Shown in pieces: positions 3,215 through 52,869 of a DNA stretch of 64,000 bases (position 1 is the first letter of the stretch; every line of letters starts with the position of its first letter). The DNA is from Candidatus Kaiserbacteria bacterium RIFCSPHIGHO2_01_FULL_53_29 (GTDB lineage: Bacteria; Patescibacteriota; Minisyncoccia; Phycocordibacterales; UBA2100). The DNA is taken from contig MFKT01000001.1 in NCBI GenBank assembly GCA_001781125.1, positions 3,630-67,629 of the forward strand. The letters run 5' to 3'. A program made the position numbers and the translations under genes. A model generated the notes under the pieces. That model was not told where the DNA came from, did no database searches, and saw only the letters and a list, made by a program, of their open reading frames with translations.

Positions 3215-3550
<336 letters not shown>

Positions 3551-3565
3551 TCTTTCGAGCAATAT

Positions 3566-4681
3566 ATGGAGCCGAATACCTCGAGTCCGAAGAATACTCG
3601 CCTACTCCTATCAGTAGGCGCTCTCGCCGTGGTCGCAGTTGCAGCTGCTCTATGGTGGTGGCAAGACGCCGCTCCCAAAGCCGGCACTTCGTACGAGGAC
3701 TTCATCGGCAATAATAGTGCGTTCGCGCAGGCTGAAGAGTTGCGCGTAGCGGGGAACAGGAGCGAAGCCGCGGCACTCTATCAAAAAGCCCTAGAAGGGT
3801 TCACGGATATTGAGGACGAAGGCCGCATCAAACTGCGTCTGGCGCTTGTCGATCCCGGTACCTACGCGCACAAGATCTCACTTCTAAAGGAAGTTGCGGC
3901 GGACGTTCGCTATTCCAGGATCACGCGAGCATATGCGGTATTCAATATGGCGGATCTGTTCTACTCGACATCCGATCCCGAGATCACCAAAGCAATATTC
4001 AGCGATGAGAAATACGCGAAATACAAAAAAAGTAATGATCTCACCTCCTACCGACGGCTCGCCGAATACGCAGCATCGCTCTATCCCATCGCGTTCGCGG
4101 AATTACGTATCGCGCAATGGCACGCAAGTCACATAGAACGCCTCTTAAAACAGCAAACACCGGACAAAGCGGAAATAGAAAGATCTACGGCAATCATTCA
4201 CGAGCGCATGGAAAAAGCTGATCGCGATATCGCGCGCATCGCACAGCAGCATGACAACTATTTCGTCGATATTCCGCGCATATTTCTGTTGCGTGCTCAA
4301 ATAATATCTAAACAAGAGAGAGTGGGAAATACGTCCTTTGGCACTACGGAAGACGCGTTCAGGCGAGCCTTAGATGCCTACGTACAGTATGGAAAGCCTG
4401 GCTCCGATGGATATGCACGCTTTTATTATTCGTCCGCATTGCAGAAAAAATATGGAAAGGAGCGTCAAAAGGAAATACAAACTCTGCTTGCGCCATTGTA
4501 TACGGGCACTGTGTACGAAAATACTCCGGTCATGACATATTTCAAGAATGAGCGCGCCAACTTGCTTGGTTCGAAGTCGCTGATCATTCAGGTGGCGGGT
4601 CTCGATCCTGATTTCAAAAGCATGCTCCGTTCTCTTGGATGGACTGAAGAGGATTTTGTACGGAGATCGACCTCAAGCTAA
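3566..4681 (+). CDS. Hypothetical signal-anchored, mostly alpha-helical protein
   Basis: 371-aa ORF with an N-terminal hydrophobic anchor (LLLSVGALAVVAVAAALWWW). The rest is charged and helical, and no specific family was recognised. Confidence 0.55.
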   Translation: MEPNTSSPKNTRLLLSVGALAVVAVAAALWWWQDAAPKAGTSYEDFIGNNSAFAQAEELRVAGNRSEAAALYQKALEGFTDIEDEGRIKLRLALVDPGTYAHKISLLKEVAADVRYSRITRAYAVFNMADLFYSTSDPEITKAIFSDEKYAKYKKSNDLTSYRRLAEYAASLYPIAFAELRIAQWHASHIERLLKQQTPDKAEIERSTAIIHERMEKADRDIARIAQQHDNYFVDIPRIFLLRAQIISKQERVGNTSFGTTEDAFRRALDAYVQYGKPGSDGYARFYYSSALQKKYGKERQKEIQTLLAPLYTGTVYENTPVMTYFKNERANLLGSKSLIIQVAGLDPDFKSMLRSLGWTEEDFVRRSTSS

Positions 4682-5475: not shown

Positions 5476-7511
5476 ACATGTCTATGAAGACAGCACGACT
5501 TTCTGCGCGCGGGAATATTTTGTTCGGCATTGCCGTGCTTGTGCTTCTGCTCGGCACGATACAGTCGGACGGCGCATTCGTATCTTCTGAAGTACGTTTT
5601 GCTGACGATTCCGCACAGGGTCTTTCGATCGTGCCCGCATCATGTCCCTCAAGTCCGCATGAGACGCCGAGTGAATGTGACGAGCCCGGGTTCAATGAAT
5701 GTTTTCTTTCCGATACTCCACCGGGCATCATCGCAGAGGGCACCACCGCCACGCTGCATTGGGATGCCGGCAAGACAGACTTTACGTATTTGAGCGGAAG
5801 CATCTCTCAGGGCGTCGGTGCCGTCTCATCGGTCGGTTCCATTCCGGTAACGCCCGCGCAGACGACGCAATACGTATACACCGGCACCCGGCAGCATTAT
5901 CAGAGCAGGACCGGACAAGTTCTCTCCTTTTCGTGCAGCACGACGGTCGCGGTGGACTCGCCTCCTATCGACTACTGCCCCAATATCGCGGGCACACAAA
6001 CTTCGGTACCGAGCGGGTATCACACAGAAGACGGCCAATGCGTTCCCGACCCCCAAAAATACTCCTGCAACACGAACAATCAGTGTATAGCTGATTCCAG
6101 CGGTCCGTACACCAGCTCGAGTTGCGACAATGCGTGTGGTTCCGTCGTCCCAAAATACTCCTGCAACGCGAGCAATCAGTGTGTAGCTGATTCCAGCGGT
6201 TCATACACCAGCTCGAGTTGCGACAATGCGTGCGGCGGCGGTAGCAACTCATGTGAAATGTACTTTGAACCGGCATCAATCCCGCCCGACGGCAGCTCAA
6301 CCCTGTATTGGACCGCAGATCATCCGGGCACGATGTATCACTCCGGCGCTACATGGCAGGTTCCTGCGGTTGGCAGCGGAATAAGCGGAGACCTCGAATC
6401 GTATCAGCTCGTAGACAACGTCAACGGTGAGTCATGCACCGCAGAGCTCACGATCCAATGTCCCGCAGGCCAAACGTGGGACGGCACCCAGTGTGTCGGC
6501 CAAAAATACTCCTGCAACACGAACAATCAGTGTATAGCTGATCCCAGCGGTCCGTACACCACCTCAAGCTGCGGGGGCGCGTGTGCACCCGTCCAAAAAT
6601 ACTCCTGCAACACGAACAACCAGTGTGCGTTGGACTCGAACGGTCCGTACACATCCTCGAATTGCAACAACATCTGCGGCAGTGGCGGAGGATTTTCCTG
6701 CAACGCGGGCAATCAGTGCGTGGCGAGTCCCAGCGGTTCATACGCTACCTCGAACTGCAACAATGCGTGTGGCGGTGGCAGCTGCTCCAAGAGCCCCTAT
6801 TGCGACGACGATACCAACGCGCATTACAGCGTCAGCGCAAGCTGCCAGTACGTTTCAGACGGGGACTGTGATGGCGGTGGTTCCTGCACCAAAAAACCCT
6901 ACTGCGATGCCGGCACCAACAAGCAATACGGCGTAAGCGCTAGTTGCCAATATGTTGCAGGCGGCAGCTGCATCGAATGTCCAGGTAACCAAAGTAAGAT
7001 CTGGAACCCTACGACGCACCAATTTGAGTGTAGGGTAACCGGATGTCCATTACCGGTCTACTACTGCCAAGCTGACAACTTGTGCCACCGCACATACGGA
7101 AGCTCCCCGGAATGTCAACCAAACAACAGCTGTTCTGCCTGTGCATACGGATGCACGCAAAGCGGATCGAGCTCTTCATGCAATCCGCCGCCCGCGCCCG
7201 AGATCGTGACGTGGAACGTGCACCCGACTCTGGTTCACCGTGAGAGCACTGTGCAGGTTGAATGGGAAGCCAAAAACGTCCGATCGTGCACTGTTAGGGG
7301 CACGAATAGCGACGGCACAGGGAATAATGCCACCGGTGTGTGGGGCGGCACGGCCGGTAGCACTCACAATCTGAGCGGTACTAAAACATCAAGCCCTATT
7401 ACTGCGCAGACTATCTACACAATTGTCTGTCAGCCGGTTCCCGAGTCTGTATCCTCTCCCGTTAGCCGCTCGACGACTGTCAACATCATCCCCATTTTTC
7501 AGGAACAGTAG
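5472..7511 (+). CDS. Secreted cysteine-rich tandem-repeat protein
   Basis: Signal peptide (MKTARLSARGNILFGIAVLVLLLGTIQS) is followed by at least 5 copies of a roughly 39-aa unit KYSCNTNNQC[IV]ADSSGPYTSSSC[DN]NACG and 2 copies of a second unit PYCD..T...Y.VSASCQYV..G.C. The C-terminal region is also Cys-rich. Confidence 0.7.
   Translation: MNMSMKTARLSARGNILFGIAVLVLLLGTIQSDGAFVSSEVRFADDSAQGLSIVPASCPSSPHETPSECDEPGFNECFLSDTPPGIIAEGTTATLHWDAGKTDFTYLSGSISQGVGAVSSVGSIPVTPAQTTQYVYTGTRQHYQSRTGQVLSFSCSTTVAVDSPPIDYCPNIAGTQTSVPSGYHTEDGQCVPDPQKYSCNTNNQCIADSSGPYTSSSCDNACGSVVPKYSCNASNQCVADSSGSYTSSSCDNACGGGSNSCEMYFEPASIPPDGSSTLYWTADHPGTMYHSGATWQVPAVGSGISGDLESYQLVDNVNGESCTAELTIQCPAGQTWDGTQCVGQKYSCNTNNQCIADPSGPYTTSSCGGACAPVQKYSCNTNNQCALDSNGPYTSSNCNNICGSGGGFSCNAGNQCVASPSGSYATSNCNNACGGGSCSKSPYCDDDTNAHYSVSASCQYVSDGDCDGGGSCTKKPYCDAGTNKQYGVSASCQYVAGGSCIECPGNQSKIWNPTTHQFECRVTGCPLPVYYCQADNLCHRTYGSSPECQPNNSCSACAYGCTQSGSSSSCNPPPAPEIVTWNVHPTLVHRESTVQVEWEAKNVRSCTVRGTNSDGTGNNATGVWGGTAGSTHNLSGTKTSSPITAQTIYTIVCQPVPESVSSPVSRSTTVNIIPIFQEQ
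6040..6790 (+). repeat. About 117-bp tandem DNA repeats inside the Cys-rich protein gene
   Basis: Near-identical nucleotide blocks (aaatactcctgcaacacgaacaatcagtgtatagctgat...cagctcgagttgcgacaatgcgtg) recur at roughly 6058, 6166, 6490 and 6598. Confidence 0.7.
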
Positions 7512-17566: not shown

Positions 17567-17767
17567 AGAAGATGTTATGAACAAAGTGAATTACATATTC
17601 TTTACCCTCCCAAATTTTGCGCTCAACGCGCTTGAGTCGAATGCAGCACTTTGTCAGAGACCCGTCTCAACAATGCGCTATGTATGGCAGTCAGTTGCGC
17701 GAGCGGAAAATTTAGGAGGGTGGAAGTTATTGCTAAACTCGCTTACACTCGTTAAGCAAAACTAACC

Positions 17768-18316
17768 ATGTCACGACTCGGCAAACTAGCTATAAAGATC
17801 CCCGCGGGCACCGACGTGTCCGTCGTGTCCCATGAGATCATCGTCAAAGGGAAGGGCGGGACTTTGAAGCGCATGCTTCATCCGGCAGTTTCCGTTGCTA
17901 TCGAAAATGGTGAGGCTTCTGTAACGCCCAAAGAGATGTCGCGCCTCGGCCGGGCACTCTGGGGTACCTACGCTGCGCACGTGCGCAATATGATTTCCGG
18001 AGTAAACACGCCGTTCGTAAAGAAGCTGCAGGTAGAAGGGATCGGCTACAAAGCGGAATTGTCGGGTAAATCTCTCAAACTTGCCGTGGGGTTCTCGCAT
18101 CCGGTCGTGCTTTCGATCCCCGAAGGCATTACCGCGGTGGTGGAGAAAAATATCATTACCGTGTCCGGTGCCGACAAGGAGCAGATCGGAGAATTTGCCG
18201 CATCCATCCGTGCGACCAGGAAGCCGGAGCCGTATAAGGGTAAGGGCATCCGATATGAGGGAGAGGTCGTACGGCAGAAGCAGGGCAAGAAAGCGGCTAC
18301 AGCGGCCGCCGCATAG
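17768..18316 (+). CDS. rplF: 50S ribosomal protein L6
   Basis: MSRLGKLAIKIPAGTDVSVVSHEIIVKGKGGTL... matches L6. Confidence 0.9.
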   Translation: MSRLGKLAIKIPAGTDVSVVSHEIIVKGKGGTLKRMLHPAVSVAIENGEASVTPKEMSRLGRALWGTYAAHVRNMISGVNTPFVKKLQVEGIGYKAELSGKSLKLAVGFSHPVVLSIPEGITAVVEKNIITVSGADKEQIGEFAASIRATRKPEPYKGKGIRYEGEVVRQKQGKKAATAAAA

Positions 18317-18337
18317 TTCGACGTTGCTCACTATAAA
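18314..18337 (+). promoter_or_regulatory. Conserved intercistronic motif TAGTTCGACGTTGCTCACTATAAA (begins with the rplF stop codon)
   Basis: The same motif follows the stop of rplO before secY and, in reverse orientation, the stop of rpmI before rplT. Confidence 0.5.
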
Positions 18338-18345
18338 CAAAATAT

Positions 18346-18690
18346 ATGTCACTTTCAAAATCAGCACAAAGAGACCGGCGCCACAAGCGAGTGCGCGCGA
18401 AGGTCATTGGCAGCGGAGCGCGGCCGCGTCTCTCTATCTACAAATCCAACACGCGTCTCACGGCGCAGATCATTGACGACGCGAAGGGTATCACTATCGC
18501 TGCTGTCTCGTCTGCCGAAGAGAAAGGCAAGACACCGCGCGAGCGGGCAGAAGCCGCTGCCGCAACACTTGCAAAGCATGCGGGCGCTAAGGGCGTGAAG
18601 ACGGTGGTTTTCGATCGTGGCGGTTTTCAATATCTTGGAACGGTGAAAGCGTTTGCCGATGCCGCGCGCGCTGCAGGACTCGAATTCTAA
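18346..18690 (+). CDS. rplR: 50S ribosomal protein L18
   Basis: ...RPRLSIYKSNTRLTAQIIDDAKGITIAAVSS...GVKTVVFDRGGFQYLGTVKAFADAARAAGLEF matches L18. Confidence 0.9.
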   Translation: MSLSKSAQRDRRHKRVRAKVIGSGARPRLSIYKSNTRLTAQIIDDAKGITIAAVSSAEEKGKTPRERAEAAAATLAKHAGAKGVKTVVFDRGGFQYLGTVKAFADAARAAGLEF

Positions 18691-18697
18691 TAATTAT

Positions 18698-19327
18698 ATG
18701 AATGTAGAACAAAATCCAGAACAGGAAGTAGCGACACCGGCAGACGAGGTTGTTGTGGAGGTGCCGGTTACGCCAGTAGAGCCACGTGCGCCACAGCAAG
18801 GCTTTGGAGGTGCTCGCGGGAATCGTGACCGGCGTGGCGGAGGTCGCGGGGGCCGTCCGGGTGGACAGCGTCGCGGGGGCGATGAGCGACGCTCGGAATT
18901 TGCGCAAAAATTGATCGGCATCCGGCGCGTCGCGCGCGTTATGGCAGGCGGTCGCCGCTTCAATTTCTCTGCGGCACTCGTGCTCGGCGACAAGAAAGGG
19001 CGGGTAGGAGTTGGCTTGGGCAAAGCCGCAGACACCGCGCAAGCGATCGAAAAGGCGACCCGTGCGGCAAAACGCGCCATGATTAATTTGAATCTGACGA
19101 AAACCCGCAGTCTCGCGCATAATGTCGAGGCCAAATACTGTGCATCGCGCGTCGAGATCCGACCTTCTCCCGGCCGGGGACTCGTCGCGGGTTCATCGGT
19201 GCGCACCGTGCTTGAGCTTGCCGGAGTCTCGGACGTCACGGCCAAGCTTCTTTCGCGCAGTAAAAATCCGGTCAACAACGCGCGCGCAGCTATCGAGGCC
19301 CTGAAGAGCATCTCGATCACACAATAG
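18698..19327 (+). CDS. rpsE: 30S ribosomal protein S5 (with an N-terminal G/R-rich extension)
   Basis: ...[47 protein letters not shown] matches S5. Confidence 0.9.
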   Translation: [209 protein letters not shown]

Positions 19328-19331
19328 ACAT

Positions 19332-19781
19332 ATGGCATCACTCAATGCACTCAAACGCATGACAAAGAGGGCATATCGCCGCGTTGGGCGGGGACAATCG
19401 AGTACGCGTGGCAAGCAATCAGGTCGTGGCGGCAAGGGGCAAACCGCGCGGGCCGGCAACAAACGCCGACCCGAGATGCGCGACATCATCAAGAAATTGC
19501 CCAAGCGCCGCGGATACGGCAAGAACCGTGGACGCACCGTAGACGGCACCAGGCCGGATGCGGTCGCTCTCTCGATCGAACGCCTCAACGCTCTCTTTGA
19601 TGCGGGGGCGGAGGTGACGCCGCGAGCGCTTCAGGAGAAGGGTATTCTCAAACGGCGCACAATGGTGCCCGTGAAGATCGTCGGCGCAGGTGTTGCAAGC
19701 GGGAAATTTTCCATAAAAGGGATCGCAGTTTCCGCGTCCGCCCGCGCAGCGATCGAGAAGGCAGGCGGAACAATTGCATAG
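19332..19781 (+). CDS. rplO: 50S ribosomal protein L15
   Basis: MASLNALKRMTKRAYRRVGRGQSSTRGKQSGRGGKGQ... matches L15. No L30 gene lies between S5 and L15. Confidence 0.9.
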   Translation: MASLNALKRMTKRAYRRVGRGQSSTRGKQSGRGGKGQTARAGNKRRPEMRDIIKKLPKRRGYGKNRGRTVDGTRPDAVALSIERLNALFDAGAEVTPRALQEKGILKRRTMVPVKIVGAGVASGKFSIKGIAVSASARAAIEKAGGTIA

Positions 19782-19802
19782 TTCGACGAAGCTCACTATA
19801 AA
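19779..19802 (+). promoter_or_regulatory. Second copy of the intercistronic motif TAGTTCGACGAAGCTCACTATAAA (begins with the rplO stop)
   Basis: Direct comparison with 18314..18337. Confidence 0.5.
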
Positions 19803-19807
19803 TATCT

Positions 19808-21082
19808 ATGATGGAAACATTCTTGCGCAAAGTAAAACTTGTCTTCGAAGACGAGACGCTCCGCACGCGCATTCTCTTCGTCTTAGGCGCACTCGTAGTG
19901 TTCCGGTTTCTCGCTGCGATCCCCATTCCGGGTATCGACGCCACACAGCTTGAAGCATTTTTGAGCAACAACCAATTTCTCGGACTGCTTAATATATTCT
20001 CGGGAGGCGGCTTCTCGAACCTTTCTATCATGATGATCGGTGTCTCTCCGTACATCACTGCGTCGATCGTCATGCAGCTCATGACCGTCCTTATCCCGAA
20101 GTTGAAGGAGATGTATCAGGAGGAAGGTGACGCCGGCCGGATGCGCTTTATGCAATATTCGCGCTATCTCACTGTGCCGCTCGCGTTCGTTCAGGCGTTT
20201 GGATTTCTCCTCTTGCTCCAACAGAACGGTATTGTACCGGCTCTTTCCCCCTTGGGATTTGCGACCAACGTCTTTGTAATAGCCGCCGGCGCCATGCTCA
20301 TCATGTGGATCGGTGAGCTCGTCTCGGAATTCGGTGTAGGCAACGGTATCTCGCTCATTATTTTTGCGGGCATTGTTGCGGGTATCCCGAGCAGCGTATC
20401 GCAGTTCGCATTCTCCTTCGATGTCTCGCAGATTCCCACATATGTCGGATTTACTGCGGCTGCGGCCCTCATCATCGCGGGTGTCGTCTTCATTACCGAG
20501 GCTGAGCGGCCCATTCCCGTCACCTATGCCCGCCGCGTGCGCGGGACGAAAGTCTTGGGCGGCATTTCCACGTATTTGCCGCTTCGTGTGAATCAGGCCG
20601 GAGTGATCCCGATTATTTTTGCGCTCTCGATACTTCTCTTTCCGCAAATGATCGCCACGTTCCTCGCAAAAAGCTCCATCCCCTTCATTGCGTCCGCCGC
20701 AAGCGCGGTTGTTTCCGGCCTTGCCAATCAATGGATCTACGGCGGGCTGTATTTCTTCCTGGTATTCATCTTTACTTACTTCTATACTGCGATCACTTTT
20801 GAGCCGCATCAAGTCGCCAAGAACCTGCAGAAGAACGGCGCCTTTATTCCCGGAGTCCGGCCCGGTGGCACAACGGCGGAATATTTGGGAAACATCATCA
20901 CACGCATCACGCTCGTGGGCGCGCTCTTCCTGGGTATCCTTGCGGTTCTGCCGATCATTCTTCAGGGTATCACCGGAATTACCGCGGTCACGATCGGTGG
21001 CACGGCGCTCCTCATCGTTGTCTCTGTGGTATTGGACCTTGTCAAAAAGATTGACGCGCAGACGTCTATCAGAGAGTATTAA
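19808..21082 (+). CDS. secY: Preprotein translocase subunit SecY
   Basis: A 424-aa protein with 10 TM segments in the SecY position after L15, with characteristic hydrophobic blocks. Confidence 0.9.
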   Translation: MMETFLRKVKLVFEDETLRTRILFVLGALVVFRFLAAIPIPGIDATQLEAFLSNNQFLGLLNIFSGGGFSNLSIMMIGVSPYITASIVMQLMTVLIPKLKEMYQEEGDAGRMRFMQYSRYLTVPLAFVQAFGFLLLLQQNGIVPALSPLGFATNVFVIAAGAMLIMWIGELVSEFGVGNGISLIIFAGIVAGIPSSVSQFAFSFDVSQIPTYVGFTAAAALIIAGVVFITEAERPIPVTYARRVRGTKVLGGISTYLPLRVNQAGVIPIIFALSILLFPQMIATFLAKSSIPFIASAASAVVSGLANQWIYGGLYFFLVFIFTYFYTAITFEPHQVAKNLQKNGAFIPGVRPGGTTAEYLGNIITRITLVGALFLGILAVLPIILQGITGITAVTIGGTALLIVVSVVLDLVKKIDAQTSIREY

Positions 21083-31481: not shown

Positions 31482-31829
31482 CTAGCCGTGGAGCTGTTTC
31501 GTCAGCCGTTCGAACACTGCAGGATGGTCTTTGGCGAGTTCGGAGAGAACCTTGCGGTCGAGGGGGATGTTGGCTTTCTTGAGTGCGCCGATGAATTTGG
31601 AATACGAGAACCCGAGCGGGCGCACGGCGGCATTGATGCGGAGTGTCCAAAGATTGCGAAATTCGCGTTTCTTTGCGCGGCGGTGACGGAACGCATGTGC
31701 GCCGGCATGGCGGATCGCTTCCTTGGCAACCCGCTCCTTGCGCGAACGATCGAAACGATAGCCTTTGGTCTGGGCCAGAATATTCTTGCGCCGCTTATTC
31801 TTTTGTACACCCCGTTTTACTCTCGACAT
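31482..31829 (-). CDS. rplT: 50S ribosomal protein L20
   Basis: MSRVKRGVQKNKRRKNILAQTKGYRFDRSRKERVAKEAIRHAGAHAFRHRRAKKREFRNLW matches L20. Confidence 0.92.
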   Translation of the reverse strand: MSRVKRGVQKNKRRKNILAQTKGYRFDRSRKERVAKEAIRHAGAHAFRHRRAKKREFRNLWTLRINAAVRPLGFSYSKFIGALKKANIPLDRKVLSELAKDHPAVFERLTKQLHG

Positions 31830-31836
31830 AAATTAC

Positions 31837-31858
31837 TTGTAGTGAGCTAGTCGAACTA
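31837..31858 (-). promoter_or_regulatory. Third copy (minus strand) of the intercistronic motif TAGTTCGACTAGCTCACTACAA, starting at the rpmI stop codon and preceding rplT
   Basis: Reverse complement of plus-strand 31837-31858. Confidence 0.5.
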
Positions 31859-32038
31859 ATTCGGCAAAAACCGACTGCGGTTTTGTGGTGTCATTTGCAT
31901 GCTGCTGGCGCGATTGTTGCGCATCTTCTCGCTGCCGGAGCGCTTGGCATTGAAGTGATTGTGCCCGGGCACCCGCGAAACGATCTTGCCCCGACGCGTT
32001 ACCCGCAGGCGCTTGCTGAATGATTTGTTGGTTTTCAT
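31856..32038 (-). CDS. rpmI: 50S ribosomal protein L35
   Basis: MKTNKSFSKRLRVTRRGKIVSRVPGHNHFNAKRS matches L35, in the canonical position upstream of rplT. Confidence 0.88.
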   Translation of the reverse strand: MKTNKSFSKRLRVTRRGKIVSRVPGHNHFNAKRSGSEKMRNNRASSMQMTPQNRSRFLPN

Positions 32039-32140: not shown

Positions 32141-34204
32141 CTAGCGATAGCGATAGTACGGGAGTTGTGGGTAGTTTGTTCCAAACAAGTAGTTTGAGAA
32201 AGCTCTACCAGCATTGAATCCGCCTAGGATTTGATTTGTCACGAAAGCATCGACGTTGCCTATGTTTGGTGGCAGACTGACACGGTTACCAATCAGTGAA
32301 TCCGGTACCCGGTTTGCGATGGGTACGGGGTCAAGAGTTGAAACTTCCCTGTAGTAGTCGTAGTTGGTGCGGTTTGGCTCTGCGGGTGTCTCTCCGAGCA
32401 GTGGAGAAGATGCCTGTATTCCCGAGGATCCGTCGGGATTTACGAACGTTGCTCTGGGGGCTTCCGCACGACCATCGAAAGAGGGAGGGAGTTGACCATT
32501 ACTATTGCCATTTGTGAAGTTAGAGCTCCCTGAATCGTTCGACTCCGGCGCAAGGCCAAATCCTGGTCTGTTACTAAACTCTTGCGGTGAGAAGTTTTGA
32601 GCGTCTGTTACGTAGCTAGGAAATTCATTGGGTCCGGTCGTCACATACGGATTCAGCGGCAAATTGTCACCCGCGTTCGCGTAGAATAAATCGTTCGGTT
32701 GACCCGACTGAGCGGGCGGCGCCCACGGGGCATCAAAGGGGCCGTAAGTCGAAACGTCACTGTTCGGCCCGAATGTATCAATTCCCGACACCTCCACATC
32801 CCTCCATGAGCTGAGAGTCGTTTGCATACACATGCCGCAACTATTCTCGAAACTACGTTCGGGTTGTGGGGACACTTGGTCAGGAGCAAGTAATTGATTT
32901 TGCGTTTCCGCTCCATCGCTTGAACCGGTCTTGTATATTGTATCGGGATTCTCGAGCATATCCCTACGCGGGTTAGGGCTCTCATTCGCTAGCTCTTGAT
33001 TTTGTGATTGAGCCTCCAAGGAACTTCGATCATTGGTCGGCAGGTCTTCGGTGGGGGGAGGGGTTGGAAGATCCGCCGCATTCTCATTGACCATCAGGAC
33101 TTCGGCTCGTTGGAGTTCATCCATCGATTGAAATTCGGTAGACTGGTCCAGCTGAATACTCTCTAGTCCGGATGTATCGGCTTGGTTGATGCCTAAGTAG
33201 TCCATTGCCCCTTCCCATGCGCTTGCAGTTGTGTCCCGAACTGCATTCCATGTACTTGCAGCAGCATCGCGGATCGAATCTACCCATCCCGACGTCTCTT
33301 GGTTTGACGAATCGAAGCCCCCCGTTTGCTCCTGTGAGAAAGTACTCCCGGAAGAAAACTGCTGCGTCATCGTGTATGCGCCGCTCCTCTTGAAGGCTTC
33401 TTCGGCATCACTTCCGCCGACACCACTACCACTCTGTTCAGCCATGAGGCGCTGGATATTCTCAGGGGCCACACCCTGGGTCGGTTGCGCGTTTTGCGGT
33501 ATCGACGCTTCGTCCTGATAATCCTCTCCTCCATATTCGTCGGCATCGCTTTCAATGTCACTGAATGATCCATTTTCAGGTAGCGGAGCTTTACTCTCCG
33601 AAGAGTCCTTCGCTTCCAAACGTGCGTCGAGTGGCTGGAGTTGGAGGTTGGCTGCACTCTGCTGCAAAGGCCCGGTATCATTCCCCCCTTTACCCGCAGC
33701 ACTCGGAATTTGCGGCGCTCCGGGAGATCCGCTACCTGCCTGTTGTGTACCACCCGGCTTGCTCCCCGGCGGTACGCATTTCCCGTCGAGCAGCTTTGTA
33801 CACTTATTGCTATGCTTCGGACCACCAACACAGCATCCCAAAATGCCGCTCTGACTGTATGCGGCTTCTGTGCATGACGATTCACAATCAGGATCTTTGG
33901 GACACTGCTCGATGCCTTTTGCCGTCTTCTCCCGGCACTTTGGTATTACGCAGTTCCGCCAATTTGTCTCGCACATATTCTTGTCTTTCTCGTTGGGATC
34001 AGTCATACATTTGTTATACGCCTGTTCGCATGCCCCGCCCGAAGTAGCTGCGGCGGCGGCGGCTTGCGCAAGAAACGCAGAGCGGTCGGGTGCAGTGCTG
34101 GTGAATTGTGTCAGACCGAAATTCGCGAGGCCGAGAATTGCCACCAATACGAGCAACGGATGAATAGCGATGTTGTCGCGCAAATTCGGACCCTCTCCAG
34201 GCAT
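32141..34204 (-). CDS. Large secreted/membrane-anchored low-complexity protein (Cys-rich N-terminal module, S/G/Q/N/P-rich remainder) inserted between infC and rpmI
   Basis: A 687-aa ORF. An N-terminal hydrophobic helix is followed by a roughly 120-aa region with about 17 Cys. The rest is polar low complexity ending in ...YPQLPYYRYR. Confidence 0.6.
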   Translation of the reverse strand: MPGEGPNLRDNIAIHPLLVLVAILGLANFGLTQFTSTAPDRSAFLAQAAAAAATSGGACEQAYNKCMTDPNEKDKNMCETNWRNCVIPKCREKTAKGIEQCPKDPDCESSCTEAAYSQSGILGCCVGGPKHSNKCTKLLDGKCVPPGSKPGGTQQAGSGSPGAPQIPSAAGKGGNDTGPLQQSAANLQLQPLDARLEAKDSSESKAPLPENGSFSDIESDADEYGGEDYQDEASIPQNAQPTQGVAPENIQRLMAEQSGSGVGGSDAEEAFKRSGAYTMTQQFSSGSTFSQEQTGGFDSSNQETSGWVDSIRDAAASTWNAVRDTTASAWEGAMDYLGINQADTSGLESIQLDQSTEFQSMDELQRAEVLMVNENAADLPTPPPTEDLPTNDRSSLEAQSQNQELANESPNPRRDMLENPDTIYKTGSSDGAETQNQLLAPDQVSPQPERSFENSCGMCMQTTLSSWRDVEVSGIDTFGPNSDVSTYGPFDAPWAPPAQSGQPNDLFYANAGDNLPLNPYVTTGPNEFPSYVTDAQNFSPQEFSNRPGFGLAPESNDSGSSNFTNGNSNGQLPPSFDGRAEAPRATFVNPDGSSGIQASSPLLGETPAEPNRTNYDYYREVSTLDPVPIANRVPDSLIGNRVSLPPNIGNVDAFVTNQILGGFNAGRAFSNYLFGTNYPQLPYYRYR

Positions 34205-35114: not shown

Positions 35115-36713
35115 TTAGAGCGCAAGCACTTGAGTCTGGGCACTTCCATACGGTCTCACAGATCTCAAGTAGTTGAGTGCGTACAGGAGAACGTTCTTGA
35201 ATATCTCAAGAATTTGTATTAGCGCCCCGTTTTGCTTCGTTGCATTGACCGGGACAGGGTTTCCGGCAAGGTCGGGAGATGTGAACGTCTGCTGCGAGAT
35301 CGGCGGCGCCATGATGATGGGACGGGCGGGTGGTGCGGAGGCGAGGGTATTGGGATTTTGTGCTGTCACGTCGGAGTTTCCCGCAGTATCTACGGAGCTC
35401 GAAACATCAGTCCCCGTTACGGCTTGCAGCTCCACAGAATTCAAGAGGTCGTTGTTGAGGGAGAGGGGCGTTGTTGTCGTCATGATCGGCTGATTGACCG
35501 GATCCATCTGATTTTCGAACTGCCGGATGAGGTCGAAGGCGGAGAGGCTGCTCGTCGCTGTCCTTGACCCATCGTTACTATTCAGATTGAGCGCGAGCGG
35601 TTCTCCGGTGGTCGTTGAGGTCGCGGTAAGAAGATTGAGGAGCGAATTCTGCGAAGAATTTGCCGGTGTCAGTAAATTTGCAATTGACGATTGAGTCCCC
35701 AATGCCTCCGAGGAAATGCTGGATTGCGCAGGAAGTATCGGTTGCGCAGAGGATTGAGGCTGTTGCGGAAGCTGCTGCTGCATCTGTGGTTGCTGCATTT
35801 GAGGTGGGGGCAGTGGCGGTGGAGGAGGTGGGGGTGGCTGCATACCAAGTGCTTGGCGAATTTGATCGGCAAGTCCGGAGGAGGGCGATCCGCGCTCTGG
35901 AGCAGGGAGAAAACCATTTCCGCTCCCGCCACTGTTGCATGCGCCGCATTGTCCATGCCTGCCCTCCGCATTTTGGAAATGACCCGGGTCCCATCCATTG
36001 ACGCCGGTAATGGTACGGAGTCCAGATCTGCCAGCGTTGGCGTGCATCCATGGCAACAGTGCCTTGTTTGCGTTGAAGTCGGCCGCGAGTCCGTAATTAT
36101 GGTACGACTGGCAAGGGCCTGCTTTTGAGGCCCTGCTGGCGACGAGACCGTTTTGTTTCTCGGGGCCTCTATATGCGTCCGTGATTTTTGGCGGGCCGCC
36201 AGGAACTGCTTCCATGAATTTTTTCAACTTTTCCGCGAATTGTGTGTTGAGGCACGAGATATTCGCGTCTTTAGTCGCATGCTGTCGCAGCCAGAGTTTT
36301 GCTTCTCCGGCAGCTTGGCCGGTATTCGGATCTTTCGTATTCCACGGCATGCCGACTTGCGGATCCGGTATGCCAGCTGACTCCATTTTCGGTATATCGG
36401 CCGCTGTCGCGGGTCGTGTACCGACTGGAGTGCTGCCAGAGGTTTCTGGGGGTTCCGGTGACAGTAGTGTTGGGATAGTGGATAGGCTATCTTTCCAGCC
36501 ACTACAGAGCTGGTGTTTTGTTCCGGGGGGCGGTGCGACGTTGTACATCACGATGGGTCCCCACCCTTTGTTGAGGAGGTCGTTGTACTCTGCGCTCTCC
36601 CACACGACATCTTTACACTCCGCTCTGACATACAGCGGAACCGTAACCACTAGGACTGCGACGATAAGAAAAAACACGAACACTCCAGTGTCGTTCAGGT
36701 CAGTTCGAAACAT
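35115..36713 (-). CDS. Membrane-anchored peptidase M15-family (VanY/endolysin-like zinc D-Ala-D-Ala / L-Ala-D-Glu peptidase) domain protein with a Pro/Gln-rich linker and a conserved C-terminal domain; paralog 1
   Basis: N-terminal TM (VFVFFLIVAVLVVTVPLY). Motifs ITDAYRGPEKQ...SYHNYGLAADFN...DPGHFQ fit the M15 zinc-ligand pattern (S.[FY]R..Q / S.H..G.A.D / H). The PPPPPPPPLPPPQMQQPQMQQQ linker is followed by a C-terminal roughly 170 aa about 70% identical to the neighbour. The start is taken at the ATG; the listed ORF starts at an upstream GTG. Confidence 0.6.
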   Translation of the reverse strand: MFRTDLNDTGVFVFFLIVAVLVVTVPLYVRAECKDVVWESAEYNDLLNKGWGPIVMYNVAPPPGTKHQLCSGWKDSLSTIPTLLSPEPPETSGSTPVGTRPATAADIPKMESAGIPDPQVGMPWNTKDPNTGQAAGEAKLWLRQHATKDANISCLNTQFAEKLKKFMEAVPGGPPKITDAYRGPEKQNGLVASRASKAGPCQSYHNYGLAADFNANKALLPWMHANAGRSGLRTITGVNGWDPGHFQNAEGRHGQCGACNSGGSGNGFLPAPERGSPSSGLADQIRQALGMQPPPPPPPPLPPPQMQQPQMQQQLPQQPQSSAQPILPAQSSISSEALGTQSSIANLLTPANSSQNSLLNLLTATSTTTGEPLALNLNSNDGSRTATSSLSAFDLIRQFENQMDPVNQPIMTTTTPLSLNNDLLNSVELQAVTGTDVSSSVDTAGNSDVTAQNPNTLASAPPARPIIMAPPISQQTFTSPDLAGNPVPVNATKQNGALIQILEIFKNVLLYALNYLRSVRPYGSAQTQVLAL

Positions 36714-36771
36714 ACAGAGAAGTATACAGAGAAAATCACTGCTCACTTCCGGCGACTGTACAAGTACTCAC

Positions 36772-38421
36772 TTATATTTGCACGGCTGCACGGCTTCCGA
36801 ACGGTTTCAAATACTCAAGCGCGAGGAGCAGCGTATCCCTGAAGATCGTAAGAATTCTTATGAGCACCGCATCGTTTTGCTTCGCTGCTGGTATATTGGC
36901 AGACACAGGAGCATTGCCAAGGTCGGGAGATGTGAACGTCTGCTGCTGCGAGATCGATGGCGCCATGATAATGGGACGTGTTGCTGGCGTCGCCGTCGCA
37001 TAGACGATGCGACCACTGATATTTTCGGGCGCTGTTGCATCCGAAGAAGGCCCAATGTCAATTGGAATATAAACATCAGTCCCCGTTGCCGCATTTAGTG
37101 CACGGGGGAAAGCAGCTTGCAGCTCCACAGAATTCAAGAGGTCGTTGTTGAGGGAGAGAGGGGTTGTTGTTGTCATGATCGGCTGATTGACCGGATCCAT
37201 CTGATTTTCGAGTTGCCGGATGAGGTAGAAGGCGGAGAGGCTACCCGTCGCTGCCCCCGACCCATCGTTACTATTCAGATTGAGCGCGATCGGTTCTCCG
37301 GTGGTCGTTGAGGTCGCGGTCAGAAGATCGAGAATTGAATTCTGCCCAGCTGAAATTGGTGAATTTGGTATCGTCAGGAGACTTGCGGGTGATGATTGAA
37401 TCGGTAGATTCGAAGAGACCGTCGGCTGTGTAGAAAGAGTTGGTTGAGCCTGAAGCGTTGGTTGAGTGGAGAGCGCCGGTTGTATCGACGACTGAGGCTG
37501 TTGGGGAAACTGCTGCTGTGGCGGCATCTGCGGTTGCTGCATTTGAGGTGGTGGCGATGGCTGCTGAGGCGCGGGCGGTTGCGGCGGGAGTTGAGGTTGT
37601 TGTCCCTGTCCGTTAGTTAGGCACTGCGATTGCTGGACCGTCCCGGGTGGCGCGATGACGGGAGGATTGAGACTCGTGAAGCACTCCGCGGTGTTCATGG
37701 CTGATGAACCCTGCGCCCAATCCCGTATCCCGCTCGTTATTCCGGAAGTAGGTGTGGTTTGAGATGTTTGAGGAGGTGGGGTGTTGGCTGGGGTACCCGC
37801 AACCCCACTGCATGACGGGCTGCGCATGTTCGTTGGTTGCATGTGCGGCCTGTCGCCCATGCCGAGCGGAAAGCCGACGCCAAATTGCGGACTCGCTCTC
37901 GCGAACGCATGCAGTTGCGCATAGTTGCCGCTTGCCGGATTCACGTCCATAGCCATTCCTATTTGGTGGTTGGAATTCGTCGCTCCTCTGGCCCTCGCAT
38001 TCTCCGTGCGGTCGCATTGGATGCTTGCAGGCGAGCGCGGCCCGCATCGGAAGGCCGACACGACAAAGATAGGCCCGTATTTCTGTGCGTATGCTTTGAG
38101 AAAATTAGCCGCGCACGTTGCAAACGCGTTGTTTAGCTTGTCGATACGACCTCCTGAGGTCGGTGGAGCTTTTGAATTCCGCAGGTCTCTCGCTATGCTC
38201 TGTAAATATGCTTTCGCTGCTCCGGCGTCGTTGGTGATTCCCGCTTTGGTATCACCGGGACAAACGGGTCTTCCCGGTAGAGCACCTGCGCGGACTTCAC
38301 CTGGAGTAGCCGTATGACCCGCCGAGCCATCAGCACAAGGACCTGCCGATTCCGTGAAAAGCGGGCCGAGGATCACTAGTGCAAAAGGGACGGCCAATAG
38401 GGCAGATACCTTGAGAGACAT
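36772..38421 (-). CDS. Secreted peptidase M15-family domain protein with a Pro/Gln-rich linker and a conserved C-terminal domain; paralog 2
   Basis: Signal peptide MSLKVSALLAVPFALVILGPLFTESA. Motifs VVSAFRCGPRSPASIQ...SNHQIGMAMDVN...DRPHMQ fit the M15 pattern. The linker is PQPPAPQQPSPPPQMQQPQMPPQQQ. The C-terminal domain (TTTGEPIALNLNSNDGS...NQPIMTTTTPLSLNNDLLNSVELQA) is shared with 35115..36713. A shared upstream motif CTGTATACTTC sits just before both start codons. Confidence 0.6.
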   Translation of the reverse strand: MSLKVSALLAVPFALVILGPLFTESAGPCADGSAGHTATPGEVRAGALPGRPVCPGDTKAGITNDAGAAKAYLQSIARDLRNSKAPPTSGGRIDKLNNAFATCAANFLKAYAQKYGPIFVVSAFRCGPRSPASIQCDRTENARARGATNSNHQIGMAMDVNPASGNYAQLHAFARASPQFGVGFPLGMGDRPHMQPTNMRSPSCSGVAGTPANTPPPQTSQTTPTSGITSGIRDWAQGSSAMNTAECFTSLNPPVIAPPGTVQQSQCLTNGQGQQPQLPPQPPAPQQPSPPPQMQQPQMPPQQQFPQQPQSSIQPALSTQPTLQAQPTLSTQPTVSSNLPIQSSPASLLTIPNSPISAGQNSILDLLTATSTTTGEPIALNLNSNDGSGAATGSLSAFYLIRQLENQMDPVNQPIMTTTTPLSLNNDLLNSVELQAAFPRALNAATGTDVYIPIDIGPSSDATAPENISGRIVYATATPATRPIIMAPSISQQQTFTSPDLGNAPVSANIPAAKQNDAVLIRILTIFRDTLLLALEYLKPFGSRAAVQI

Positions 38422-43932: not shown

Positions 43933-44474
43933 AAACAAAACAAAGCCAGAAAAACTCTGTCCTGTCGATCTTTATAGAACCTTTATTCCGTAATGCTGCG
44001 CAAAACAGAATATGGAAGAACGTGAATAACATGTACTTATGTGGAGATGGCGAGAATTGCACTCGCGTCCAGAGAAGAGAATATGAACGATTCTACACAA
44101 CGTAGATTATTCTGAATTTTCGTCGCGGTGCATCAAGAACAATCAAAAGTGCATCGCGCTTACCTCTCTTTCTTGAAAGCAGTGCGCGGAGTGACGCAGA
44201 GCTCGAGTCAATTGATTATGGCGTTCGAATCAGAGCAAATGACAACTGCTGATTGAACGGTCGTTCGAGCTGTTTAGGCAAAAACGAGGCCGAGGTCTTT
44301 CGCCTGAATCGGAGAAAGAACCCCCCGTGCTACTTTGTTCGCACTTGAGTTTTGAGGCAGTTTAAAAAGATGCCACAACTTTGTTGCGCACAGACATATT
44401 CCTATTTCCCTGTCGAAACTGATCATCCCCCACCCACGATTCTACGAGAGAATCATGGGTGGGGAAGGACAAGG

Positions 44475-50080: not shown

Positions 50081-50233
50081 GGGACATGAATGAGCCTGTT
50101 CGAGTTGTCATAACCGGAGGGACCGGCGTATACGTTGCCATGAATGGAAAGGTATTCCTCTGGAACAATGTCAGGAAGAATAGAGATAAGCAAGTGTTTG
50201 AAAACTTGCAAAAGACGGTAGAGTAGTACTGTT

Positions 50234-50304
50234 GCGCCCATAGCTCAATGGTAGAGCGACCGTCTTATACACGGTCTACCTAGGTTCGATTCCTAGTGGG
50301 CGTA
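50234..50304 (+). tRNA. tRNA, apparent anticodon UAU (Ile, AUA-reading) by manual cloverleaf folding; CCA not encoded
   Basis: GCGCCCA-TA-GCTC-AATGGTA-GAGC-G-ACCGT-CTTATAC-ACGGT-CTAC-CTAGG-TTCGATT-CCTAG-TGGGCGT-A. There is a G1·U72 wobble. A TTGAAA..TAGAGT promoter-like sequence lies upstream. Confidence 0.7.
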
Positions 50305-50358
50305 TAAGTGAACTTTGCTGTGAATTGCGAGGTTGCACCCTCGGCTCGCCGTGCGACA

Positions 50359-52723: not shown

Positions 52724-52869
52724 ATGATATGCCCGGTAGGACAATTTCGAATCGCCTTGATATGAATATTTACCAGCGTATGACGAGAAAAATTGATTCG
52801 AGAATTTTGCAGCCATTCGTCGTTGATACCGCGGCAAGAATTATTCGAAATTGTACTGACCGGGTATGA
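52724..52869 (+). repeat. Copy D of the roughly 140-bp cassette, outside the ribosomal cluster, upstream of a secreted PG-binding protein gene
   Basis: gaTATG|CCCGGTAGG...CTGACCGGG|TATGa. The 35-aa uORF MNIYQRMTRKIDSRILQPFVVDTAARIIRNCTDRV has an ATGA overlap with the downstream ATG. Paired substitutions (C to T in the 5' arm, G to A in the 3' arm) keep the closing helix intact. A 1-nt insertion fuses uORF1 and uORF2 in frame. Confidence 0.8.

Follow-up and report, generated by a model that had tools for sequence, protein, structure and literature searches.

A miniature hairpin repeat, probably tolerated at stop codons, at three gene junctions of a Candidatus Kaiserbacteria genome

Why should three gene junctions in one bacterial genome carry the same short motif, beginning on the stop codon of one gene and ending just before the start codon of the next? 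The question is raised by a 64-kb stretch of DNA (64,000 nucleotides, hereafter the window) from the genome of a Candidatus Kaiserbacteria (Parcubacteria, CPR), a tiny groundwater bacterium of the Rifle aquifer, in which TAGTTCGAC-N2-3-GCTCACTA occurs three times against 0 expected. A first-pass annotation had described this motif as conserved before rplR, secY and rplT, and had proposed that it enhances translation re-initiation, marks an RNA processing site or binds a protein. Re-reading of the window found the three sites exactly as described, with their gene pairs (L6/L18, L15/SecY and L35/L20) confirmed by Pfam. The claim that the motif is too conserved for chance also held, as the pattern TAGTTCGACN{2,3}GCTCACTA matches the window at 18314-18333 and 19779-19798 on the forward strand and at 31840-31858 on the reverse strand, against 0.00 matches in 100 dinucleotide-preserving shuffles. 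The observation is thus real and non-random, and its best explanation is a small repeat whose presence at stop codons is tolerated, rather than a signal peculiar to rplR, secY and rplT.

The repeated unit is about 24 nt long and reads TAGT-TCGAC-N2-3-GCTC-ACTA followed by a 4-nt tail, either TAAA or CAAG (Table 1). As first annotated, each intact copy begins at the in-frame TAG stop of the upstream gene (rplF, rplO or rpmI), and GGAGG is absent from all three junctions. The gap between the motif and the next ATG had been given as 8-11 nt and is in fact 5-8 nt, being 8 nt before rplR, 5 nt before secY (8 nt if counted to the second ATG of its ATGATG) and 7 nt before rplT. The internal spacer is 3 nt in the rplR and secY copies, which end in CACTATAAA (the TAAA tail), and 2 nt in the rplT copy, which ends in CACTACAAGTA (the CAAG tail). 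A covariance model built from 32 family members recovered only the three intact copies from the window, with E-values of about 1e-8 to 1e-7. The three copies first reported are thereby all accounted for, and a fourth had been overlooked, a decayed copy at the rplP/rpmC junction that escapes the model in the window scan and has intact counterparts at the same junction in three relatives (L007, L009 and L013). All window copies are singlets, with no doublets among them. Within 14 kb both strands of the window carry copies, against a steady climb in cumulative GC skew, so their orientation follows the gene and not the strand.

Table 1. Window positions of the hairpin-repeat copies, of the genes flanking the intact copies and of two further element families
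Feature	Position	Strand	Sequence	Score (bits)	Remarks
Intact copy 1	18314..18337	+	TAGTTCGACGTTGCTCACTATAAA	36.2	rplF/rplR junction; rplF stop TAG at 18314-18316
Intact copy 2	19779..19802	+	TAGTTCGACGAAGCTCACTATAAA	39.4	rplO/secY junction; rplO stop TAG at 19779-19781
Intact copy 3	31836..31858	-	TAGTTCGACTAGCTCACTACAAG	37.5	rpmI/rplT junction; rpmI stop TAG at 31858-31856; rplT ATG at 31829-31827
Decayed copy 4	13793..13818	+	TAGTTCGACCACCGCATCACTCTAAA		rplP/rpmC junction; rplP stop TAG at 13793-13795
rplF (L6)	17768..18316	+			Upstream of copy 1; Pfam
rplR (L18)	18346..18690	+			Downstream of copy 1; Pfam
rplO (L15)	19332..19781	+			Upstream of copy 2; Pfam
secY	19808..21082	+			Downstream of copy 2; tandem ATGATG start; Pfam
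rpmI (L35)	31856..32038	-			Upstream of copy 3; Pfam
rplT (L20)	31482..31829	-			Downstream of copy 3; Pfam
~140-nt element	9894-10033		CCCGGCAGGACAATTTCGAAT...		~21-nt terminal inverted repeats; rplW/rplB
~140-nt element	12019-12158				rpsS/rplV
~140-nt element	14697-14836				rplN/rplX
~140-nt element	52728-52868				Before ORF at 52866
~190-nt element	17567-17767				Between rpsH and rplF; holds 62-aa ORF (no Pfam hit)

When relatives were searched with the core alone (TCGAC-N2-4-GCTC), the flanks were found to covary, with the pairs ATAGT/ACTAT, ACCCT/AGGGT, ACCCC/GGGGT, ATCCT/AGGAT, ATTCC/GGAAT and TGGT/ACCA; six copies from this unbiased search have stems other than TAGT/ACTA and keep 5/5 flanking pairs. 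This covariation indicates a small hairpin with the conserved loop UCGAC-NN(N)-GCUC, and because the stem spans the flanks, the TAG forms its 5' half. Copy 1, for example, pairs ATAGT (18313-18317) with ACTAT (18330-18334) around the loop TCGAC-GTT-GCTC. Across 32 instances the hairpin is composed of a 5-bp outer stem, a UC/UC internal loop, a G-C pair, a bulged A, a C-G pair and a variable apical loop; 88.8% of cells are paired in this register, against 13-38% in slid registers, 7/7 pairs have changed on both sides, and 0 of 500 shuffles match the observed score. The conserved loop is constant across sequence classes while the stem varies freely, and with five outer and two inner covarying pairs the element is, as REPs and REPINs are, a short imperfect palindrome able to form a hairpin.

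A conserved loop on a variable, covarying stem is also the usual anatomy of a hairpin recognized by a protein, as RNA or as single-stranded DNA, and in that form the protein-binding site first proposed may stand. It brings in an alternative that we hold to be possible but unlikely, namely a functional, perhaps co-opted RNA hairpin whose loop is a putative site for an RNA-binding protein or nuclease at cistron boundaries. Such a hairpin could enable or control internal initiation, uncouple cistrons, or define or stabilize processed mRNA ends, and the tandem arrays found elsewhere could act as decoys. In keeping with such a role, the end of the hairpin and the ATG are 9-21 nt apart, which places it inside a ribosome footprint. 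Its class-1 stem, however, is no more stable than that of shuffled sequence, and there is no known candidate for the binding protein.

The distribution of the element among relatives bears on both readings. The comparison covered 80 SecY loci, one per species, and four closer relatives, giving about 85 Kaiserbacteria/Paceibacteria operons, with L-numbers as labels for the relatives' loci and contigs. Conservation before rplR, secY and rplT, as first proposed, is not borne out, since most relatives have junctions of 5-15 nt there (TAAnnnATG, typically GCATAAnnnnATG, at rplF/rplR and rplO/secY) and carry the element at other junctions instead. Across species its occurrence is sporadic and takes in L23/L2, S19/L22, L16/L29, L24/L5, S8/L6, L6/L18, S5/L15, L15/SecY and L35/L20. 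Filled junctions measure 27-33 nt, against medians of 8-15 nt for the empty orthologous ones, and two pairs of relatives differ by exactly 24 nt: rplF/rplR is 32 nt in L009 (filled) and 8 nt in L007 (empty), and rplO/secY is 30 nt in L007 (filled) and 6 nt in L017 (empty). Flanking proteins end and start at identical residues whether the junction is filled or empty, and the rplF C-terminus of the window is equal in length to that of relatives without the element.

Over the same operon region in 85 genomes the covariance model finds 0-7 copies, nearly all positives falling in the Kaiserbacteria clade, for a total of 46 matches at E-values up to 1 over 1.5 Mb of operon sequence, or 0-7 per 20 kb. 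A distance tree joins the window with L208, whose rplO/secY junction holds a copy with the same GAA spacer as copy 2, and then with L207 and (L209,(L007,L009)). Presence differs between sister species, and orthologous junctions may be filled, empty or decayed. L007 has three copies in the operon and L009 seven, at shifting junctions; L209 and L207 have none, and their junctions are mostly very short (e.g. TAATATG). The absence from these sister genomes shows the element to be dispensable. Decayed copies also occur at junctions that are intact elsewhere (L16/L29 in the window, L6/L18 in L207 and L210, S8/L6 in L210) and persist between essential genes; the decayed S8/L6 copy of L210, a genome that holds decayed and intact copies together, has a GAT spacer in common with L017. 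Dispensability, decay and the shift of junctions between L007 and L009 all speak against a functional RNA hairpin. On the other side of the balance, strain-level presence/absence polymorphism was not seen among six near-identical contigs, all of which carry the copies, and this counts against a mobile repeat. Some empty junctions consist of two stem halves without a loop, TAGTACTATG or TAGTATG (rplO/secY in L009; rpsS/rplV in L017 and L028), and could be excision footprints or chance.

The element is one member of a wider family of repeats; when metagenomes were scanned for its TAGT/ACTA class, at least 120 contigs matched. The expected tie to gene boundaries in relatives was found for the TAAAT-tailed copies, 21/33 of which, among the matches listed, are accompanied within 30 nt by both a stop in frame and an ORF starting with ATG, against 0/79 of the listed copies with other tails. 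Among these matches the non-junction copies have longer stems, lie beside an inverted partner that pairs with them, stand in tandem or are nested. Tandem arrays with a 24-nt period occur in related contigs, and copies sit inside another copy's loop at S5/L15 of L009 and in L151, L121 and L158. Inverted doublets are found in the rpsN leaders of L017 and L208, in L130, L093, L112 and L174, and in unrelated cultured bacteria that have the same core, Sphingobium and Moraxella, where inverted pairs lie in intergenic regions of Sphingobium and Moraxella osloensis plasmids. Stem-bearing copies are intergenic or at junctions, and the loop is shared by CPR bacteria, Alpha- and Gammaproteobacteria and one actinobacterium.

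The first-pass annotation had further remarked that L18 and L20 are rRNA-binding or autoregulatory proteins. Junction copies also separate PilB/PilC, CsoR/Cu-ATPase (two contigs), successive pilin genes and LigA, ABC/MacB, Ndk/NUDIX and CDF/DUF134, so the link to ribosomal proteins is incidental, and specificity for them is ruled out.

The family thus defined, with its conserved loop in CPR bacteria, Proteobacteria and an actinobacterium, had no description that could be found in Rfam or the searchable literature. Rfam 15 returned no family for the window at the gathering threshold, nor for 16600-20000 and eight repeat-rich loci under permissive settings; near-threshold matches to Acido-Lenti-1 in L113 were set aside, as they fall on a different, neighbouring repeat. 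Literature searches with the sequence string TTCGACAAGCTCA and with peptide strings such as FDKLRV and PELVEG gave no relevant description, and BLAST of phage genomes gave no match to the repeat. Spurious ORFs in public annotations, such as 'PFDKLRxxG' or 'VVSLSNHE', may be translations of this family, with which the Sphingobium and Moraxella records are consistent.

A loop shared across phyla could also be read as the mark of an ancient partner. That the hairpin is the putative recognition site of a conserved RNA-binding factor, through which translation or the processing of mRNA would be organized between cistrons in those Parcubacteria from which the anti-Shine-Dalgarno (anti-SD) sequence has been lost, seems to us rather improbable; were it so, single hairpins by start codons would be targets and tandem arrays decoys, and the loop would reflect that partner and not a transposase.

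Three further observations would suit a functional RNA hairpin and are counted against a mobile repeat, or fit both. First, where two species share a junction, 21 core positions are 76-100% identical while fourfold degenerate sites in the flanking genes are only 30-53% identical (saturated) and the spacers differ. Cores kept despite saturated silent sites count in favour of an RNA hairpin, and purifying selection fits this identity as well as repeated insertion does; it may reflect selection on the core, repeated hits on the same junction or homogenization between copies. Second, the rpsN-leader copy shows a stepwise compensatory series, from CCCC/GGGG through CCCC/GAGG to CCTC/GAGG. Third, junction copies are strongly biased towards the sense strand, with 33 forward and 3 reverse, and in the three reverse copies the ATG is formed with the element's last base.

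The lack of Shine-Dalgarno (SD) motifs at the three junctions extends to the window as a whole, where GGAGG is almost absent from upstream regions. Many first genes have a -10-like TAnnnT box 5-8 nt before the ATG (e.g. at 10928, 45812 and 57904, and on the reverse strand at 32141 and 38460), which, judged from the sequence, suggests that leaderless mRNAs are widespread in this organism. The 16S rRNA of an element-carrying relative, not that of the window organism itself, has a 3' tail ending ...GCUGCUCGUGGAGUAAUUCAAUUU, without CCUCC; in this gene (L177, 9670-12124, reverse strand), ...CTTGTAC is followed by a CPR-type insertion of about 850 nt. The tail agrees with a published account in which roughly half of Parcubacteria have no anti-SD (PMC9297842).

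The same absence of SD and anti-SD is in keeping with a functional RNA hairpin, and it would also leave room for an SD substitute. An element between stop and start could enhance re-initiation by tethering the terminating ribosome through pairing with rRNA, as calicivirus TURBS do, a proposal for which complementarity to the 16S 3' tail had been put forward as a check. The check yielded no consistent pairing between element and tail: predicted duplexes with the relative's 16S tail are no better than those of shuffles for three of the four window copies, and their registers differ. As the stem is free to vary between classes while the loop alone is constant, and the element is dispensable in sister genomes, we regard rRNA tethering as very improbable. 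The strongest duplexes predicted with the L177 tail, at -10 to -11 kcal/mol, are those of the right arms of the 140-nt element described below, and may be mere AT-rich palindromes.

Scarcely any credence, and slightly less than for tethering, can be given to an internal promoter, either of the sigma-70 type, with TATAAA as -10 element and near-leaderless mRNAs, or of the phage T7 type, with CTCACTATA, a 9-nt identity to the T7 promoter consensus core. The TAnnnT boxes of the window genes, sometimes with TTGACA 17 nt upstream, lend the former some plausibility. A sigma-70 consensus scan gave no match at rplR or rplT, however, and 9/12 at secY only by using the ATG itself; the essential T at the end is missing from both TATAAA and TACAAG, and TTCGAC is only 9 nt upstream. 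The sigma-70 promoter was rejected, its -35/-10 hexamers and 16-18 nt spacing being absent. The T7-like promoter was rejected because other family members alter exactly the CTCACTATA part, CACTATA being replaced by CAGGGTA, CAGGATC or CACCACA. Moreover, no single-subunit RNA polymerase is among the window proteins scanned against Pfam (a minority of the window ORFs), each of which matched an unrelated family or none. A sigma-54 promoter, a boxA/Nus site, a tRNA T-arm mimic and SECIS/PYLIS-type recoding were dropped by inspection, as the rules of spacing or pairing are not obeyed and the 32 nt from TAG to ATG are out of frame.

The motif is therefore, in our judgment, probably a copy of a miniature REP/MITE-like hairpin repeat that did not evolve in place and is tolerated at stop codons because it supplies an in-frame TAG of its own. 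Sitting on stop codons, at junctions that differ between relatives, it looks like a small mobile element and not like a dedicated translation signal. Copies would be pasted by some enzyme into the few sites tolerated in a very compact genome, and the putative enzyme may, like RAYT/IS200-type transposases, use hairpins of single-stranded DNA as substrate. On landing on a TAA stop, possibly with duplication of TA, the first three bases of the element would become the in-frame TAG, so that the upstream protein would be unchanged; the A/T-rich tail and the old spacer would remain before the next ATG, and both proteins would thus be left as they were. In a reversed copy the tail would be read as part of the upstream frame, and the orientation bias of the junction copies could be explained in this way. 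The repeat would be co-transcribed with the operon, and with so weak an AU-rich stem in the window copies (-2 to -3 kcal/mol) it probably affects expression little. The 24-nt difference in length would suit a TA...TA duplication, but this is inseparable from the element's own ends, and the boundaries of the element are ambiguous. The only inverted repeat in the element is the hairpin stem. Against a mobile repeat stands the lack of any identified transposase, RAYT or other; none of the Y1 kind is among the window proteins scanned against Pfam.

Two other insertion-like families occupy junctions of the same operon, which suggests that these junctions act as landing sites in this lineage, and both abut or duplicate a start codon (Table 1). 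The 140-nt element folds into a long hairpin (-45.6 kcal/mol, z = -5.5) and is flanked by direct TATG, so that the downstream gene takes its start codon from the right end of the element; the left TATG opens an 11-codon mini-ORF (MPGRTISNC..) in 3/4 copies. The empty site reads TAATC-TATG in L008 and L032, the element is also present in L207, and a member in L015 has the same termini around a different core. The left arm of its rpsS/rplV copy contains TTCGAATTGCTCACTATGAA, two mismatches from the hairpin motif, where the other copies differ. The 190-nt element ends in ...TTGCTAAACTCGCTTACACTCGTTAAGCAAAACTAACCATG and has 13 copies in nine taxa, all abutting an ATG, at different junctions.

Several other features of the window were recorded in passing. 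Short CTAG-rich repeats (CTAGTCCCTAGCACCTAG; CTACAAGCTACAAGC) lie at other operon junctions (11631-11665, 12567-12615, 13334-13368 and 14270-14312) and carry TAG in all three frames, and relatives have other low-complexity, G-poor repeats there, such as CCCTAAA, GATTAGAAC or ATTCGTA units. Toxin-antitoxin modules are set inside the ribosomal-protein operon (10928-11523 and 15687-16228): between rplB and rpsS sits mazE-mazF, whose canonical promoter, TTGACA-17-TACAAT, lies 6 nt upstream of the ATG, and between rplE and rpsN, on the opposite strand, a relB/yafQ-like pair. Upstream of rpsN lie a promoter of its own (TTGACT-17-TATATT) and a leader of some 140 nt (16715-16881), the promoter being followed at once by a terminator-like hairpin (16750-16763, then a T-run). 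Blocks of this leader are conserved in L017 and L207-L209; the leader gives no Rfam hit, contains an inverted doublet of the hairpin repeat in some relatives and may be an undescribed ribosomal-protein leader. Elsewhere the window holds a tRNA-Ile with a TAT anticodon, unusual in bacteria (50233-50305), a tmRNA gene (44039-44430), a tract rich in Asp, encoded by GAC/GAT (3376-3574), five repeats of 93-96 nt (6039-6767) within a 679-aa ORF and two neighbouring paralogous genes (35244-37600) that share 231 nt at 93% identity (35422-35652 and 37115-37345).

If the motif is indeed such a repeat, compact CPR genomes still take in repeats, and insertions survive where the signal they disrupt is regenerated, in this case the stop codon. 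Repeated intercistronic motifs in streamlined genomes should accordingly not be taken automatically for regulatory signals. As their hosts do without SD/anti-SD pairing, these junctions also offer a good test ground for the translation of internal cistrons.

How the element stands among known systems can be judged from its anatomy and its dynamics. Protein-binding RNA hairpins share with it a conserved loop or bulge on a free stem, a place just upstream of start codons and arrays elsewhere, but the repeat has neither a binding protein nor the logic of a regulon, and its sites are dispensable and decaying; phage coat-protein operators, CsrA sites and CsrB-type decoys serve as analogies for the RNA-hairpin reading only. 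Rickettsia palindromic elements (RPEs) are likewise small, palindromic and repeated, occur in reduced genomes and persist only where insertion leaves proteins functional. RPEs are about 100-150 bp long and are inserted in frame inside coding regions, whereas the hairpin repeat closes the reading frame at once with its own TAG. MITEs with TA duplication (e.g. Correia, Stowaway-type) resemble it as small non-autonomous insertions that are seen as filled and empty sites, nest in one another, are co-transcribed with their neighbours and may duplicate TA, although the 24-nt unit is far below their usual size of about 100-400 bp and has no terminal inverted repeats beyond the hairpin.

The closest likeness is to REPs and REPINs, whose published traits (PMC3337134) were compared with those of the repeat. 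Both are imperfect palindromes of about 20-25 nt that form hairpins and lie between genes, usually just past a stop codon; both come in several sequence classes per genome and as singlets, inverted doublets and clusters; and in both the spacer is unconserved, old singlets decay and copy number depends on the lineage (PMC3337134). The repeat differs from REPs in its conserved loop and variable stem, in a loop that spans phyla where classical REPs are lineage-specific, and in overlapping and supplying the stop codon within tiny host genomes. In every trait that could be tested here, the RAYT transposase apart, the hairpin repeat matches the REP/REPIN pattern.
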